A DNA stretch of 64,000 bases from an uncultured Bacilli bacterium (GTDB taxonomy: Bacteria > Bacillota_I > Bacilli_A > RF39 > UBA660). Where the stretch lies: the NCBI GenBank assembly GCA_934101795.1, contig CAKORY010000004.1, forward strand, positions 18,468 through 82,467, in the 5' to 3' direction. The position numbers and the translations under genes are program-made. Positions 14,548 to 20,338 of the stretch are shown here, piece by piece. The notes beneath the pieces were generated by a model. It was not told where the DNA came from. It did no database searches and saw only the letters and a program-made list of their open reading frames with translations. Positions within the stretch are counted from its first letter, which is position 1. Each line of letters starts with the position of its first letter.

Positions 14548-14567
14548 AAAAGAGCTTTTGCTCTTTT
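14548..14567 (-). terminator. intrinsic terminator (AAAGAGC-aaaa-GCTCTTT + T-run) overlapping the stop of the 14566-14964 gene
   Basis: Read on the minus strand; a T-run follows the stem. Confidence 0.5.
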
Positions 14568-14964
14568 ATTTAATTATTACTCCATTTTCATCAAATTCAT
14601 AATGTGGTAATACAAAATCTTCTTTTTTATTACTATTATCTAATTTATCTAGTTCTATATTTTTACTTTCTATATATTTTGTATCACTATTAATAATTTC
14701 ACTATCTATATCATTTAATCCATTTGTAAGCTTAGTATATTCTTCTGTTTTATAGCCTTCGAATAATACATCTTTAATATCTTTTTGATTAAATGAACAA
14801 TAACTACTTTTAATCATTACTCCTTCTGGATATGCACAACCTGAATAATCATATATTTCTAAGTCATTTGCATATTCTACAGAGTAATAACCAGTTATCA
14901 TTATTGATTTATTATTATTTCTAAGCTTTACTACACTACCAATTGGTAAATATCTTTTATTCAT
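14566..14964 (-). CDS. hypothetical protein, possibly DUF4176-like
   Basis: 132 aa. The N-terminal YLPIGSVVKL...IMITGY resembles the LP(I/L)GSVV motif I associate with DUF4176. This is uncertain. Confidence 0.35.
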   Translation of the reverse strand: MNKRYLPIGSVVKLRNNNKSIMITGYYSVEYANDLEIYDYSGCAYPEGVMIKSSYCSFNQKDIKDVLFEGYKTEEYTKLTNGLNDIDSEIINSDTKYIESKNIELDKLDNSNKKEDFVLPHYEFDENGVIIK

Positions 14965-15011: not shown

Positions 15012-16604
15012 TCAGTTTACTCTGATTGGATCAGTAGCAGTCCCACTTCCTGATTCATATGTTATGGAAGCTTTGAGATTGAAAACTGGTCTCACCGCAC
15101 GCCCAACGCTTGCATTACCGTTGTCCACGCTACCAGCATCATTCACAAGTAACGCATTAGAGGCACCGTCCGCTTCACGGGAAATAGTCCATTCCTGAAG
15201 TCCCATATGCATCCAATTGACACTTGTTGCTACTCTATAATCTTTTGTTACATCACTATTATATCCTAATAATGTCCACTTATCTTGTGGCACTGCATAC
15301 ATATAGTCGCTTAAATACATTGCTCCTATTTTTGCACTATATTCTGTTGTATTATCTGTTGTATTTGTTGTTATGGGATTATTTATTTCATTTTTATATG
15401 TTGTTTTGGCTGGTTGGATTTCTATATTTTCCCATGTGTTTCCGCCAACCTTCCATGTTGTTGTATCTATTTTTTTTGCCCATTCTGCTCCTATTTTAGT
15501 TATGAAATTTGTATTTAAATTTGTTTTATTTAACAAACTTGTACTCCATGTATTTGAACCTTTCCCACTATTTATACTTGTATTATTTTTATAATTCCAT
15601 GAATATCCTGCTATATTGGCTAAATTGTTGCCTTTATAATCTGAATTACTCCAATTATTTGTAGATGCAATAGTAGTATATTTATCATTATAATCTCCAT
15701 CTGTACCTAATAATGCACTTGTTGCATAATCTGCTTTGATTAGTTTTACTCTTTGTTCAGTTTGATTTTCTCCAACTTTATTATCAAATACTCCAATTAT
15801 TCTATATAGATTATCTTCTGGACATGGACTTTCTGTTGAACCAAAACATACATAATTATTTACTTGATCACTTGCTCCAGCATATCTGTATGAATTATCC
15901 TCTGCTCCATTTGTTAGGCTTGCATCATGGTAATAAATACTATTTTCACCTTGGGTTCCTGTATATAGTGATTTTACATAATCTGCTAAAGTTGGATCTG
16001 CTTCTCTTTCATAAGACTTAACTGCAACTCCTGCTGCAAATGTTGTGTTTTGATATTCTGTTGCTTTTTCATCTACAAATAGGTATAAATCATAAGTTGC
16101 ACTACCTTTGTATGGAACTTTATTATTATAAAGTTTAAATATATTACCATAAGTACCAGATAAGCCAGCATTAAGTTCTGTTTTTTCTGCATCAGTAAAA
16201 TTATCTGCATCATCTAAAGAACTTGTAAGTGTACCTTCCACTAAAGCTTCTTTAGAACCTTTTTCAGTTATAATATAATGAATATTTGAAGCTGACAAAG
16301 TATTAGTGTTTAGTGTTGCTAAATAAAGATTAAAACCTACATAAGTATCACAATAACTAGTAACTGTAAAAGTATATGGAGTCGTTTGTAATCCTTTGTT
16401 TCTACTCATAGGATAACTATTAGTTAGTTTTATTGAAGTGGTTCCTTCTAATTTTATTTTAGCACAGCTTGATAAACTAACTTCAGTTATATTTCCACCT
16501 TGATCTATTGGTTTCATAAAAGCCGTTGTAATACTTACAGAAAGTACCACTACTATTAAAACTGCTAGTACACTTAATATAATAATTCTGGTTTTTTTAC
16601 TCAT
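15012..16604 (-). CDS. membrane-anchored surface protein, paralog of 44989-46659, sharing a C-terminal ~300-aa domain and terminal motif with pilin-like proteins
   Basis: 530 aa. N-terminal signal-anchor (IIILSVLAVLIVVVLSV). The C-terminal half is about 70% identical to the second large protein (DYVKSLYTGTQGEN...YRIIGVF...TTWKVGG...AKIGAMYLSDYMYA...VRPVFNLKASITYESGSGTATDPIRVN). Confidence 0.6.
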   Translation of the reverse strand: MSKKTRIIILSVLAVLIVVVLSVSITTAFMKPIDQGGNITEVSLSSCAKIKLEGTTSIKLTNSYPMSRNKGLQTTPYTFTVTSYCDTYVGFNLYLATLNTNTLSASNIHYIITEKGSKEALVEGTLTSSLDDADNFTDAEKTELNAGLSGTYGNIFKLYNNKVPYKGSATYDLYLFVDEKATEYQNTTFAAGVAVKSYEREADPTLADYVKSLYTGTQGENSIYYHDASLTNGAEDNSYRYAGASDQVNNYVCFGSTESPCPEDNLYRIIGVFDNKVGENQTEQRVKLIKADYATSALLGTDGDYNDKYTTIASTNNWSNSDYKGNNLANIAGYSWNYKNNTSINSGKGSNTWSTSLLNKTNLNTNFITKIGAEWAKKIDTTTWKVGGNTWENIEIQPAKTTYKNEINNPITTNTTDNTTEYSAKIGAMYLSDYMYAVPQDKWTLLGYNSDVTKDYRVATSVNWMHMGLQEWTISREADGASNALLVNDAGSVDNGNASVGRAVRPVFNLKASITYESGSGTATDPIRVN

Positions 16605-16633
16605 AAGAAAAATCTCCTTTATTCTATATATAA

Positions 16634-16662
16634 ATTATATAAAAAAAATTAAATTTGTTCAA
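16634..16662 (-). promoter_or_regulatory. putative sigma-A promoter (TTGAAC-17-TATAAT) for 15012-16604
   Basis: Hexamers read on the minus strand about 30 nt upstream of the RBS AAAGGAG. Confidence 0.4.
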
Positions 16663-16697
16663 GTGTTTAATGATAATAAATTTTAAAAATAAAGAAA

Positions 16698-16725
16698 AAG
16701 ATCTTAAAAATTTAATTAAGATCTT
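16698..16725 (-). terminator. terminator hairpin (palindrome AAGATCTT x2) overlapping the stop of the ToxN-like gene
   Basis: AAGATCTT-12 nt-AAGATCTT followed by TTTTCTTTATTTTT on the minus strand. Confidence 0.5.
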
Positions 16726-17191
16726 CTTTTAGTTCATCTAACATCATTTGTTTTAATTTATCTATGTCAGGAAAAAATAAATTTATTCCACGCTTCTTAT
16801 AACCTAATAATTGTTTAAAATTATTTGTTATTTCCTTTTTTAGGTCAGATCCAACAAATAAAGGCATGTTACTCACAGTATGAACATGGTCTATATATTT
16901 TTCTAAAGTTGGAAATGCATTTTGAAATAATATTACTGCATCGGCATCAGCAATTTTTCTTATCCAAATAGTATTACAAAAACCATACTTTAAAATTTTA
17001 TTATTAATTATTTTTTGATATTTACTTACTTTTGAACTTATAGGAATGAACCATAAAATATCACCATCTTTTATAGTAAAATATGTTGGCCTTTTTTTAC
17101 CTCTTTCGTGATTTACCATTAGTTTATCATCATTCACGTGATAAAAATACTCATCTTTAATATGATATAAATATCCAGTTTTTATTTTCAT
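16712..17191 (-). CDS. ToxN/AbiQ-like endoribonuclease toxin (candidate type III TA toxin)
   Basis: 159 aa with RBS AGGTGAGG. Size and N-terminal pattern (YLYHIKDEYFYHV..., RPTYFTIKDGDILWFIPISSKVSKY) resemble ToxN/AbiQ. A promoter, tandem RNA repeats and a terminator sit immediately upstream. Confidence 0.5.
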   Translation of the reverse strand: MKIKTGYLYHIKDEYFYHVNDDKLMVNHERGKKRPTYFTIKDGDILWFIPISSKVSKYQKIINNKILKYGFCNTIWIRKIADADAVILFQNAFPTLEKYIDHVHTVSNMPLFVGSDLKKEITNNFKQLLGYKKRGINLFFPDIDKLKQMMLDELKEDLN

Positions 17192-17238
17192 AATTTATTC
17201 ACCTCACCTGATATTTGCATTATAACATAAGCCACAAT

Positions 17239-17267
17239 AAAACTCAAGCATTTAACTTGAGTTTTTA
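17239..17267 (-). terminator. intrinsic terminator between the repeat array and the toxin ORF (AAAAACTCAAG-ttaaatg-CTTGAGTTTT)
   Basis: 10-bp stem with flanking A and T runs. It sits where the attenuating terminator lies in ToxIN-type loci. Confidence 0.6.
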
Positions 17268-17270
17268 ACA

Positions 17271-17470
17271 TTTTCGACCGGGATCATTTATTAGTCGCAC
17301 CACCCGGAAGCGAAAAACATTGTCGACCGGACTCACTTGATACCCCGCACCATCCGGAAGCGGAAAACATTTTCGCTGGGATAATTTATTAGTCGCATCT
17401 CCCAGAAGCGACCTCTATTTCGCATTTGGAATAATTTATATCCCGCACCATCCAAGAGCGGCACATTCTC
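17271..17470 (-). ncRNA. candidate type III antitoxin RNA (toxI-like): four tandem 49-50-nt repeats, each with a 5-bp stem showing compensatory substitutions
   Basis: Units at 17271-17319, 17320-17369, 17370-17418 and 17419-17468. The stems (plus strand) are CCGGG/CCCGG, CCGGA/TCCGG, CTGGG/CCCAG and TTGGA/TCCAA around a ~20-nt loop (..ttattagtcgcacca). The block is GC-rich relative to its surroundings and non-coding. A consensus promoter lies directly upstream. Confidence 0.55.
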
Positions 17471-17482
17471 TAATGCAATTTA

Positions 17483-17511
17483 AATATACCACACTTTAAC
17501 GCAATTGTCAA
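17483..17511 (-). promoter_or_regulatory. sigma-A promoter driving the repeat array (-35 TTGACA, 17 nt, extended -10 TGgTATATT)
   Basis: Read on the minus strand about 40 nt downstream of the ppdK stop. A TSS is predicted at about 17476, at the edge of the first repeat. Confidence 0.55.
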
Positions 17512-17553
17512 ATGAAATATTTTATATTTATAGTATATTCTTTTCTTAATAAA

Positions 17554-20184
17554 TTATTTACCTTGTTTTCTTAAAATAGCAGATCTAGCTGCTGCTAAAC
17601 GAGCAATTGGAACTCTATATGGAGAGCAAGATACATAATTAAATCCTAGTTTATCACAGAAAGCAACACTAGCTGGATCTCCACCATGTTCACCACAAAT
17701 ACCTAGTGAAAGCTTTGGATTAACACTTCTACCTTTAGTAGCTCCCATTTCCATTAAAAGCCCTACACCATCAAAGTCTATACGAGCAAATGGATCAAAT
17801 TCAAATATTCCTTTTTCATAATAAGAACTTAAGAACTTACCAGCATCATCTCTAGAAAAACCATATGTCATTTGTGTTAAGTCATTTGTTCCAAAACTAA
17901 AGAATTCTGCTTCTTCAGCTATTTTATCAGCAAGAAGTGCAGCACGCGGAATTTCAATCATTGTTCCAACTTCATATTTTAAATCAATACCAGCATTTTT
18001 AATTAATTCATCAGCAGTTTCACAAACTATATTTTTAACATATTTAAGTTCTTTAACTTCACCAACAAGTGGAATCATTATTTCTGGAGTAACATTAATT
18101 CCTTTTTTAGATACATTAATAGCTGCTTCAATAACTGCTCTTGTTTGCATTCTAGCAATTTCTGGATATGTTATAGCTAAACGACATCCTCTATGTCCCA
18201 TCATTGGATTAAATTCTTTTAGTGAATCAATTACTTCATGTAACTCTTCAACTGTTTTACCTAAAGCTTCAGCAAGTTCTTTAATTTCACTTTCTGTTTT
18301 TGGTAAGAATTCATGTAAAGGTGGGTCTAAATATCTAATGACAACACTATATGGAGCCATTGCTTCATATAATCCTTCAAAGTCTTTTCTTTGATATGGC
18401 AAAATATTTTCAAGAGCTTCTTCTCTTTCTTCTAGCGTTGTTGCACAAATCATTTTTCTAAAGTTGAATATTCTATCTTTTTCGAAGAACATGTGCTCTG
18501 TACGGCAAAGTCCAATACCTTCAGCTCCAAATTTTCGAGCTTGAATAGCATCTTTTGGTGTATCAGCATTAGTTCTAACACGTAAATCTCTTGCACTATC
18601 AGCCCATGACATAAATGTTTCAAAATCACCACTAATTGATGCTTCTTCCATATCAAGTTTTCCAGCATATACTTTACCAGTTGAACCATCAATTGATAAA
18701 TAGTCTCCTTCTTTATAAATAGAACCATCAGGCATTTTTAATGTTTTTTCTTCTTCATTTATAACGATTGATGAAGCACCACTAACACAGCAAATACCCA
18801 TTCCACGAGCAACTACTGCAGCATGACTTGTCATACCGCCACGGATAGTTAAAACACCTTTACTTGAATTCATTCCTTCGATATCTTCCGGTGATGTTTC
18901 AAGTCTAACTAAAATACTATCAATACCTTTTTTCTTATTTTCAATTACATCACTTGCAGTAAAGTAAATTTTACCAGTTCCTGCTCCAGGTGATGCTGCT
19001 AAGCCTTCAGCAACTACTTTACCAGTTTTTAAAGCACTATCAGTAAATGTTGGATGTAAAAGTGCATCAAGTTGTTTAGGATCAACCATTAAAACTGCTT
19101 CATCTTTTGTTATCATACCTTCATTTACTAAATCAACAGCAACTTTTATAGCAGCTTTTGCTGTTCTTTTACCATTTCTTGTTTGTAAAATAAATAGCTT
19201 ACCATTTTCAATAGTAAATTCCATATCTTGCATATCTTTATAATGTTTTTCAAGACTTTCAGCAATATTTGCAAATTCAGTATATACTTCTGGCATTTCT
19301 TCTTTTAAAGTTGCAATTGGACTTGGTGTACGAATGCCTGCAACAACATCTTCACCTTGAGCATTAATTAAATATTCTCCGAATAAGGCTTTTTCTCCAG
19401 TTGCAGGATTTCTTGTAAATGCAACACCAGTTCCTGAATTATTTCCACTATTACCATAAACCATTTCTTGAACATTAACTGCAGTTCCCCAACTAGATGG
19501 AATATCATTTATTCTTCTATAATAAATAGCTCTTTCATTATTCCAACTTCTAAATACTGCTTTAACAGCTTCAATTAATTGAGTAAATGGTTCTTGTGGA
19601 AAATCTTCTCCAGCAAATTCTTTATAAGCTTTTTTAAACAAATCTGTAAGTTCTACCATATCATTTTCATCTAAATCAATGTCATTTTTAACACCTTTTT
19701 TGGCTTTAACTTCATCAATTATAGTTTCAAATTTACTTTTAGAATATCCTTTTACTACATCGGCAAACATTTGAATAAATCTTCTATAAGAATCATATAC
19801 AAATCTCTTATTACCAATTTTTTCAGCAAAAGATGAAGCTATCTCATCATTTAAACCTAAATTAAGTACTGTATCCATCATACCAGGCATACTAGCACGA
19901 GCTCCGCTTCGTACACTTACAAGAAGTGGATTGGTTTTATCACCAAATTTTTTGCCGCTTTTTTCTTCAAGTTTTGATAAAGCTTCTTTAATTTGGTTTA
20001 TTACTTCTTCACTTAATACCTTTCCATCATCATAGTATTTGTTACAAGCCTCAGTTGTAACTGTAAATCCACCCGGAACAGGCATACCAATATTAGTCAT
20101 TTCTGCTAAATTAGCCCCTTTACCTCCAAGGAGATTTCTCATATCTTTGTTTCCTTCTTGAAACAAATAAACATATTTTTCCAT
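17554..20184 (-). CDS. ppdK: pyruvate, phosphate dikinase
   Basis: About 876 aa. N-terminal MEKYVYLFQEGNKDMRNLLGGKGANLAEM, and a central TSHAAVVARGMG phospho-His region. The track start at 20196 lies inside the RBS GGAGGA, so the ATG at 20184 is preferred. Confidence 0.95.
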   Translation of the reverse strand: MEKYVYLFQEGNKDMRNLLGGKGANLAEMTNIGMPVPGGFTVTTEACNKYYDDGKVLSEEVINQIKEALSKLEEKSGKKFGDKTNPLLVSVRSGARASMPGMMDTVLNLGLNDEIASSFAEKIGNKRFVYDSYRRFIQMFADVVKGYSKSKFETIIDEVKAKKGVKNDIDLDENDMVELTDLFKKAYKEFAGEDFPQEPFTQLIEAVKAVFRSWNNERAIYYRRINDIPSSWGTAVNVQEMVYGNSGNNSGTGVAFTRNPATGEKALFGEYLINAQGEDVVAGIRTPSPIATLKEEMPEVYTEFANIAESLEKHYKDMQDMEFTIENGKLFILQTRNGKRTAKAAIKVAVDLVNEGMITKDEAVLMVDPKQLDALLHPTFTDSALKTGKVVAEGLAASPGAGTGKIYFTASDVIENKKKGIDSILVRLETSPEDIEGMNSSKGVLTIRGGMTSHAAVVARGMGICCVSGASSIVINEEEKTLKMPDGSIYKEGDYLSIDGSTGKVYAGKLDMEEASISGDFETFMSWADSARDLRVRTNADTPKDAIQARKFGAEGIGLCRTEHMFFEKDRIFNFRKMICATTLEEREEALENILPYQRKDFEGLYEAMAPYSVVIRYLDPPLHEFLPKTESEIKELAEALGKTVEELHEVIDSLKEFNPMMGHRGCRLAITYPEIARMQTRAVIEAAINVSKKGINVTPEIMIPLVGEVKELKYVKNIVCETADELIKNAGIDLKYEVGTMIEIPRAALLADKIAEEAEFFSFGTNDLTQMTYGFSRDDAGKFLSSYYEKGIFEFDPFARIDFDGVGLLMEMGATKGRSVNPKLSLGICGEHGGDPASVAFCDKLGFNYVSCSPYRVPIARLAAARSAILRKQGK

Positions 20185-20338
20185 ATAATCCTCCATATAT
20201 TTATTTTATCATTTATAAGCTAGCTGTACAAGAAAAAACATGTCAAATTTACATACTTTTGATATTAATTAAAAATTAAGAAAATGAACTCAATTATGAA
20301 CGATCTTTGTCAATCGATAAAGGCCATTTTTCCGTTAA

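Follow-up and report, generated by a model that had tools for sequence, protein, structure and literature searches.

The closest described relative of the locus treated here is the CptIN system of Eubacterium rectale (PDB 4RMO; PMC4627078). The active site of its toxin, CptN_Er, is a Ser-Ser/Thr-Arg triad, and Asp81, Ser85 and Tyr104 specify the scissile adenine (Rao et al. 2015, PMC4627078). Its antitoxin RNA, CptI, ends in G44-A45 with a 2',3'-cyclic phosphate (PMC4627078). A 2012 survey of 33 cptIN loci found repeat units of 40-48 nucleotides (nt) in 1.9-3.4 copies (Blower et al. 2012, PMC3401426). Type III toxin-antitoxin systems in general have been described as a bicistronic operon with a single promoter (PMC5086642). 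We analysed a 64-kb stretch of DNA, called the window below, from an uncultured gut bacterium of the class Bacilli and the RF39 lineage (contig CAKORY010000004.1). On the minus strand, 3' of ppdK, it holds a promoter (P1), four repeats of 48-50 nt, a hairpin (T1), a ribosome-binding site (RBS), an open reading frame (ORF) of 159 amino acids (aa) and a second hairpin (T2). We argue that this locus is, with high probability, a chromosomal CptIN-family type III toxin-antitoxin system. A first-pass annotation made from the letters alone had already seen a type III layout here, which holds, and had suggested a distinct type III family, which does not.

Three observations carry the assignment: which family the protein belongs to, the RNA with its homology and pseudoknot covariation, and a layout that is conserved. 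Families of type III systems are defined by toxin sequence similarity, and for CptIN this means grouping with CptN. The ORF scores 153 bits against a cut-off of 90 on the NCBIfam equivalog model NF047359.1 ('type III toxin-antitoxin system CptIN family toxin') and spans profile positions 1-150 of 150. Its sole significant sequence match in the PDB is 4RMO_A, the E. rectale CptN (E 1.4e-19, residues 4-148). An AlphaFold 2 model built on a 47-sequence alignment that reaches down to 30% identity has a pLDDT of 94.4 and a pTM of 0.89. An earlier model from 25 close homologues had a pLDDT of 52 and was discarded. When the good model is searched against the PDB with Foldseek, 4RMO_A is again at the top (TM 0.83/0.85, rmsd 2.3 A over 156 columns, 32% identity). 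AbiQ (4GLK, TM 0.75) and ToxN (2XD0, TM 0.67) rank next, and then the MazF proteins. The first-pass annotation had called the ORF ToxN/AbiQ-like and proposed a profile search and a structure prediction as the check. The fold part of that call stands, with CptN, AbiQ and ToxN as the top three structures. The family part does not, as the Pfam model PF13958 (ToxN_toxin) gives 16.5 bits against a gathering score of 25 (E 0.01), which places the protein outside the ToxIN family, and NF047359.1 makes it a CptN.

The protein belongs to a large family, with 2578 members at 90% clustering and 927 clusters at 50% identity (E up to 1e-3). Deposited records that name the protein at all call it 'hypothetical protein'. 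Among 47 relatives down to 30% identity Y9, K57, L88 and P94 are invariant, and S52, Q90, R34, P35, W47 and P50 are nearly so. One homologue (P0002) is chimeric. Its C-terminal half is near-identical to the window toxin (16712-17191) and its N-terminal half is much more diverged, which suggests recombination between cptN alleles.

The second line of reasoning is the RNA. A direct-repeat search finds four head-to-tail repeats at 17466-17270 with start-to-start distances of 50, 48 and 50 nt, within a few bases of where the first-pass annotation had put them. They are also conspicuously GC-rich, as it had remarked, with 44-50% G+C in the array against 13-30% in the flanks. Tandem Repeats Finder does not find the array even at score 30, because its copies are only 56-78% identical to one another. 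The array was analysed with the direct-repeat search, nhmmer and Infernal instead. For comparison we used related loci (L001-L080), the best 80 of a scan over one genome per species that found relatives encoded in 362 genomes; the toxins of these 80 are 64-99% identical to the one in the window. A hidden Markov model made from the four window units was run on the related loci, and all 77 that have upstream DNA show repeats ahead of the toxin, so the pairing of repeat and ORF that the first-pass annotation proposed to look for elsewhere does recur. These loci hold 156 units, 75 of them distinct, and the lengths are 49 nt (111 units), 51 nt (33), 50 nt (10) and 48 nt (2).

The units are predicted to fold as an H-type pseudoknot, and the alignment of the 75 distinct units was used as the test. 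Stem S1 pairs columns 5-9 with 23-27, and stem S2 pairs columns 12-16 with 40-44. Standard pairs fill 94.8% of the cells; sliding the 3' partners by 1-3 columns lowers this to 29-51%. Both sides have changed together in 7 of the 10 pseudoknot pairs (114 cells), and S2 covaries in 5 of 5. Loop L2 is 11-12 nt long and contains AAUAAAU. An H-type pseudoknot with a long A-rich L2 and single-stranded tails is what marks a CptIN RNA, and that is the structure found here. A covariance model built from the relatives makes exactly four matches in the 64-kb window (E 2e-17 to 3e-9), and all of them are the array units. Nested minimum free energy folding is uninformative for single units and for the whole array (z -1.8 to +0.5), because the unit structure is a pseudoknot. 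Rfam returned nothing relevant on 16400-17800 at E up to 10. On the whole window it gave nothing at gathering score, and no tRNA, rRNA, riboswitch or T-box was called.

One can imagine that these repeats act as DNA, as protein-binding iterons or the remnant of a mobile element, or that they are translated. Direct repeats beside a promoter could in principle bind a regulator, and a 43-aa ORF with a GTG start (17333-17464) does run across units 1-3. We consider this extremely improbable. On one strand both helices are kept by compensatory changes, as is characteristic of an RNA. The array lies exactly between promoter and terminator in all loci, and it is homologous to an RNA that has been solved bound to its toxin (4RMO). 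The 43-aa ORF was rejected: the units have 48-51 nt, lengths that are not multiples of three, so that a reading frame does not carry over from one unit to the next. This agrees with the first-pass annotation, which had called the repeats non-coding.

The units are long, and this was the reason for suggesting a distinct family. In that scenario the locus would found a fourth type III family, akin to ToxIN, CptIN and TenpIN in layout only. The window has 48-50 nt and four copies, and the clade has 48-51 nt with two copies as the norm, so the lengths and the four copies exceed the ranges of the cptIN survey (PMC3401426); these ranges are descriptive and are not a defining criterion. The protein is unnamed in Pfam and in deposited records, and the RNA lacks an Rfam match. 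We argue that a separate family is nonetheless very improbable. The ORF exceeds the cut-off of the curated equivalog model by 63 bits, and sequence and structure alike give 4RMO as the best match. The identity of the relatives declines smoothly from 57% to 30% across the 927 clusters, without a gap.

The same continuity is seen in the repeats. A profile scan of IMG/VR gave 77 loci with CptN relatives of 28-75% identity. The repeat period is 45 nt in 17 of these loci (toxin identity to the window 30-31%), 46 nt in 36 (30-42%), 47 nt in 2 (35-40%), 48 nt in 3 (33-41%) and 49 nt in 3 (44-75%). Judged by these sequences, unit length shifts stepwise with toxin divergence, and 45, 46, 47, 48, 49 and 51 nt are all represented across the CptN relatives. 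The covariance model of the 49-51-nt units also picks up the 45-48-nt units, correctly oriented and immediately ahead of distant CptN genes (E 1e-15 to 1e-2). When units of 45-51 nt are aligned jointly, three elements coincide: S1 (CGC/GCG), the AAUAAAU in the core of the long loop, and a tail of the AAAU type. The MAFFT alignment moves the 3' S2 strand by one column in the short classes, so S2 was counted across the family with our own script, which pairs the fixed 5' S2 strand with the best downstream 5-mer and takes swapped 3' halves as the control. The mean is 4.8 of 5 pairs over 32 strand combinations, compared to 3.8 for swapped halves (maximum 4.1 in 200 trials).

The E. rectale type of unit was recovered from the IMG/VR loci and checked against the residue numbering of Rao 2015 (PMC4627078). 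The 45-nt class (e.g. L141, AAGUUUUCCGCUGACCAAUAUGCGGGAUAUAAAUGGUUGGGUUGA) fits the CptI_Er numbering exactly: G13 is the L1 base, A27-G35 form L2 with A29 and the U30 kink, and G44-A45 are the 3' end. Relative to this class the window units have about one extra base each in the junction between S2-5' and S1-3', in the L2 loop and in the tails. The junction has 4 nt instead of 3 (6 in the 51-nt variants), and L2 has 11-12 instead of 10. An excess of only 1-2 nt, beyond a small survey sample, does not put the locus outside the CptIN family. The distinct family is thus ruled out by NF047359.1, by 4RMO in sequence and fold, and by the cross-detection of the 45-48-nt units.

The third line of reasoning is the layout of the locus (Table 1). 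Blower et al. 2012 (PMC3401426) recognise type III loci by a ToxN-fold toxin, a terminator palindrome preceding it, tandem repeats and a -35/-10 promoter, and each of these is present. The promoter upstream of the array is a preferred and not a strict feature in that scheme (PMC3401426), and termination at T1 is itself a prediction. P1, which the first-pass annotation had described as near-consensus, is the top-scoring promoter-like site of the region in a promoter scan. In 67 of 72 related loci an equivalent TTGAC[ATG]-N16-18-TAnAnT precedes the first unit by no more than 75 nt. The leaders of the related loci are 26-29 nt long, end in GAAAAT and form a small hairpin whose pairing is kept while its sequence varies. 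The window leader hairpin is weak (-3.1 kcal/mol, z -0.4), and since it is not significant we do not claim it. T1 and T2 were judged by folding against shuffled sequences. T1 folds with -12.8 kcal/mol (z -4.9, with 0 of 200 shuffles equally stable), and related loci have a hairpin with a U-tract at its position. Both hairpins had been called terminators in the first pass, and the folding is consistent with that. The RBS and the ORF are also where it had placed them, and a GGAG-type RBS is kept at -13 to -10 in the related loci.

Table 1. Coordinates of the predicted features of the cptIN locus in the window
Feature	Position	Strand	Description
P1, predicted antitoxin-array promoter	17483..17511	-	TTGACA, 17-nt spacer, TG-extended TATATT; 11/12 consensus positions + TG
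Short 5' leader	17467..17482	-	ends in GA at the first predicted processing site
CptI unit 1, 50 nt	17417..17466	-	S1 CCGC/GCGG; S2 UUGGA/UCCAA, 5/5 paired; 46.8 bits, E 1.6e-9
CptI unit 2, 48 nt	17369..17416	-	S1 GUCGC/GCGAC, 5/5; S2 CUGGG/CCCAG, 5/5; 45.5 bits, E 3.4e-9
CptI unit 3, 50 nt	17319..17368	-	S1 UCCGC/GCGGG; S2 CCGGA/UCCGG; 54.8 bits, E 1.5e-11
CptI unit 4, 49 nt	17270..17318	-	S1 UCGC/GCGA; S2 CCGGG/CCCGG; 77.7 bits, E 2.3e-17
T1, intrinsic-terminator-like hairpin between array and toxin	17239..17265	-	inverted repeat, 11-bp stem; 3' arm runs into UUUUAUUG
P2, predicted toxin promoter	17219..17247	-	TTGAGT (inside the T1 3' arm), 17-nt spacer, TGtTATAAT; 10/12 + TG
RBS AGGTGAGG	17202..17209	-	10 nt before ATG
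cptN, predicted 159-aa type III toxin, putative endoribonuclease of ToxN/Kid/MazF fold	16712..17191	-	NF047359.1; 4RMO_A; AlphaFold 2 model
T2, terminator-like hairpin overlapping the cptN stop codon	16695..16728	-	13-bp stem, -12.8 kcal/mol, z -2.5; U-rich run after it

The predicted second promoter, P2, was not remarked on in the first-pass annotation and needs its own argument. Type III systems are described with one promoter, so a separate toxin promoter would be a regulatory variant contrary to that generalisation. In 46 of the clade's 78 arrays an extended -10 element, TGnTATAnT, lies 27-36 nt ahead of the start codon, most often at 28 nt; 45 of the related loci L001-L080 have it. Where the gap is longer (122-142 nt), a full TTGAC[GA]-17-TA(T/C)A(T/C)T promoter takes the same place. 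Over 56 distinct sequences the information per column is highest at TG, at TATA and at the last T. It falls at the two N positions and across the spacer that leads to the GGAG RBS, as one would expect for a -10 element under selection. In the canonical CptIN loci (45-48-nt units) the terminator abuts the RBS, and there is no P2-like element. From these motifs we think it probable, without being sure, that P2 functions as a separate toxin promoter.

It is possible, if less so, that TGnTATAnT is not a promoter at all and that the locus is a single-promoter operon whose toxin is expressed only by read-through of T1. This is the published canon (PMC5086642). In DNA this AT-rich, TATA-like strings are frequent: in 1.4 kb the promoter scan finds 15 sites where 8.3 are expected. 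Most loci have a poor -35, and in most relatives the predicted start leaves a 5' untranslated region of only about 12 nt. Against this reading, the motif sits at a near-fixed position while its N positions and the flanking spacer vary, the longer-gap loci have a complete promoter there, and canonical CptIN loci lack anything comparable.

The units themselves differ from one another, and there is some order in the differences. The S1 types of the window alternate, with CCGC/GCGG in units 1 and 3 and UCGC/GCGA in units 2 and 4. Unit 4 is the nearest of them to the clade consensus. By S1/S2 type the array is A-B-A-B, and it looks like a duplication of the two-unit array that is normal for the clade. 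Where 250 nt or more of upstream DNA is available, 69 of 72 arrays have two copies; the window has four, L001 has three and L036 has one. Ten contigs (L158-L167) carry an identical toxin, and 8 of them have four units while 2 (L159 and L161) have three. Copy number is therefore polymorphic within the species, 3 or 4. In the three-unit arrays of L159, L161 and L001 (the last with a 99%-identical toxin) the first unit is fused to, or deleted against, the leader.

In the related loci the two units are position-specific and non-identical (mean identity 83%), and each has its own compensated S2 helix (e.g. units 1 and 2 of L006). Unit 1 usually ends in GACAAU and unit 2 in GAAAAU. One may ask whether a single complex needs both unit types. 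A single 49-nt unit, the promoter-distal one, is 100% identical across 36 species-level loci whose toxin genes average 84% nucleotide identity (minimum 77%). The RNA is under striking purifying selection. At the predicted cut site 153 of the 156 units have GA, and the first unit is itself preceded by a GA-type junction.

From the homology to CptIN_Er we propose the following mechanism, in which processing, cut sites, inhibition, toxicity, P2 activity and biological role are inferred. The strong P1 would drive the leader and the four non-identical CptI units, and transcription would mostly end at T1. Each unit should fold into an H-type pseudoknot with a 4-5-bp S1, a 5-bp S2 and an A-rich loop of 11-12 nt. 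CptN would then cut the precursor between units after the GA of (C/U)GA^(A/C)AAU, a site taken from homology to E. rectale CptI. In the window the predicted cuts fall at 17467/17466, 17420/17419, 17373/17372, 17323/17322 and 17274/17273, and they would yield monomers of 47, 47, 50 and 49 nt. CptN would stay attached to these 47-50-nt products and form with them a closed protein-RNA complex that occludes the active site; in E. rectale the complex is 2:2. If synthesis of the antitoxin RNA stopped, or the labile RNA was degraded, free CptN could cleave cellular or phage RNA and arrest growth. The weaker P2 downstream of T1 probably also drives the toxin gene in this clade. If it is active, the ratio of antitoxin to toxin would be set by two promoters and not by terminator read-through alone.

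It must be said that several points weigh against reading the locus as a working CptIN module of this kind. Toxicity, antitoxicity, processing and complex formation are carried over from the homologous CptIN systems of E. rectale, C. catus and R. torques. P2 is predicted from motifs, and the DNA there is very AT-rich. A consensus terminator scan found zero sites and called neither T1 nor T2; we suspect T1 escaped it because the scan counts the whole A/U-extended stem, which leaves no T-run. Not every window unit need inhibit equally well, since the units are only 56-78% identical. The active site also differs. In the 4RMO alignment S52-S53-K54 of the ORF falls on S51-S52-R53 of CptN_Er and D84 is kept, so the third residue of the Ser-Ser-Arg triad is Lys54. 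The scissile-adenine contacts have changed too, Tyr104 to His104 and Ser85 to Ala. However, position 54 is K, Q, R or N among the 47 relatives, and position 104 is H in 29/47 and Y in 13/47. The window residues are thus common states of the family, and the comparison gives no hint of an inactivated enzyme.

The distribution of the family bears on what the module is for. The best 80 loci come nearly all from metagenome-assembled genomes of uncultured gut Bacilli (labelled Erysipelotrichaceae, Tenericutes or Mycoplasma), and they were recovered from rabbits, humans (Hadza), ruminants and further samples of gut or unspecified origin. A search of the literature for a link between type III systems and RF39 gave no result. 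In the window ppdK (17554-20196; Pfam PPDK_N, PEP-utilizers) precedes the locus on the same strand. It is also upstream on the same strand, often directly adjacent, in 29 of the 62 loci with enough flank, and these ppdK sequences are 61-82% identical. Synteny at such identities means that the module has kept this position through deep divergence. It indicates that the 3' side of ppdK is a long-standing home of cptIN and does not reflect recent mobility.

One scenario, then, is a functional CptIN module whose role is not abortive-infection defence, namely a vertically inherited chromosomal addiction or growth-control module. We put this just short of an even chance. Besides the ppdK synteny, the window neighbours are housekeeping genes (queA, thymidylate and folate enzymes, hrcA, a short-chain dehydrogenase), and no defence island or mobile-element gene is in view among them. 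PADLOC has no matching model and gave only a spurious NERD hit. All 33 of the 33 cptIN loci of the 2012 survey are chromosomal (PMC3401426). The E. rectale and R. torques CptIN systems gave no protection against six coliphages in E. coli, and CptIN_Er stabilised a plasmid (PMC3401426; PMC5086642). Those coliphage tests were heterologous, however, and the present host is uncultured. The ToxIN, AbiQ and TenpIN relatives do abort phage infection (PMC3401426; PMC5086642). CptN relatives also occur on 77 IMG/VR viral or prophage contigs, one at 75% identity, so the family does travel with phages. The INPHARED phage collection has no protein match, and PLSDB has 7 distant matches (30-45% identity), all named 'hypothetical protein'. 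One 63-kb contig classed as viral (L081, IMGVR_UViG_3300011008_002676) has a cptIN of the 49-nt clade with a toxin 75% identical to that of the window and two units.

A bolder scenario joins these threads. The clade may have moved from a single promoter with a leaky terminator to a two-promoter design in which the array (P1-T1) and the toxin (P2) are transcribed as separate units. The A and B unit types may both be needed, for example in a hetero-RNA 2:2 complex, and with the stable ppdK synteny this would point to a domesticated growth-control role and not to mobile defence. As a whole we regard it as rather unlikely.

Two other genes lie downstream. A 530-aa ORF (15012-16604, minus strand) just downstream has an N-terminal hydrophobic segment and is without a Pfam match. 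Its length varies (503, 504, 515 or 530 aa), and with only 86% identity in the conspecific L001 it varies far more than the genes around it. It has its own promoter-like site at 16662-16634. A DUF4176 protein of 132 aa (14566-14964, minus strand) lies between it and the short-chain dehydrogenase.

The locus is a known kind of system, CptIN, and it is only mildly new: slightly longer, more numerous and non-identical units, a probable second promoter, and a clade of this size and synteny. Among uncultured gut Bacilli a large clade of CptIN is now documented (362 species-level genomes, 927 clusters at 50% identity), and the range of CptI length and copy number is extended. The covariation-supported alignment could seed an RNA family model. 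The protein is 'hypothetical protein' in the records that name it, and the RNA matches no Rfam model. A separate toxin promoter would be a testable regulatory variant against the single-promoter generalisation. The value is incremental. No new mechanism is opened and no long-standing question is settled.

It remains to set the locus beside the known systems. The type II toxins MazF, Kid and CcdB are far shorter proteins that share the beta-core fold distantly (TM about 0.45-0.65 on the target); their antitoxin is a protein, and they have no RNA repeat array. TenpIN of Photorhabdus luminescens has the type III layout, and its repeats of 39-57 nt overlap the lengths found here (PMC3401426). Repeat length alone is not relatedness, though, and searches of Pfam, NCBIfam and the PDB gave no sequence match to a TenpN model or structure. 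AbiQ/antiQ of Lactococcus lactis (4GLK) has an endoribonuclease toxin of the same fold (TM 0.75) and the repeat-terminator-toxin layout. Identity is 13%, and AbiQ is plasmid-borne, falls in the ToxIN family on sequence grounds and has demonstrated activity against phages. ToxIN of Pectobacterium atrosepticum and Bacillus thuringiensis (2XD0/2XDD, 4ATO) has the layout, the fold (TM 0.67) and, by analogy, the class of mechanism, in which the toxin processes the repeat RNA into inhibitory pseudoknot monomers. The window protein is only about 12% identical to it and misses the Pfam ToxN_toxin cut-off (16.5 bits against 25). ToxI units are 34-36 nt, the ToxIN complex is a 3:3 heterohexamer (2:2 in CptIN), and its abortive-infection activity is proven.

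The nearest system is CptIN of E. rectale (PDB 4RMO; PMC4627078) and the cptIN family (PMC3401426), and here the differences are small. The units of the clade measure 48-51 nt, those of E. rectale 45 nt and those in the survey 40-48 nt; the junction from S2 to S1 is 4-6 nt against 3, L2 is 11-12 nt against 10, and the tails are longer. The window has four copies against about 2, and units within an array are non-identical here while those of E. rectale-type arrays are often 100% identical. The toxin has Lys for Arg in Ser-Ser-Arg, His for Tyr104 and Ala aligned with Ser85, and a second promoter is predicted before the toxin that canonical CptIN lacks. The toxin is a full-length homologue of CptN (E 1.4e-19, 32% identity, TM 0.83-0.85). 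The RNA units are homologous, with an H-type pseudoknot, an A-rich L2, single-stranded tails and GA at the processing site, and the order of promoter, repeats, terminator and toxin on the chromosome is the same.

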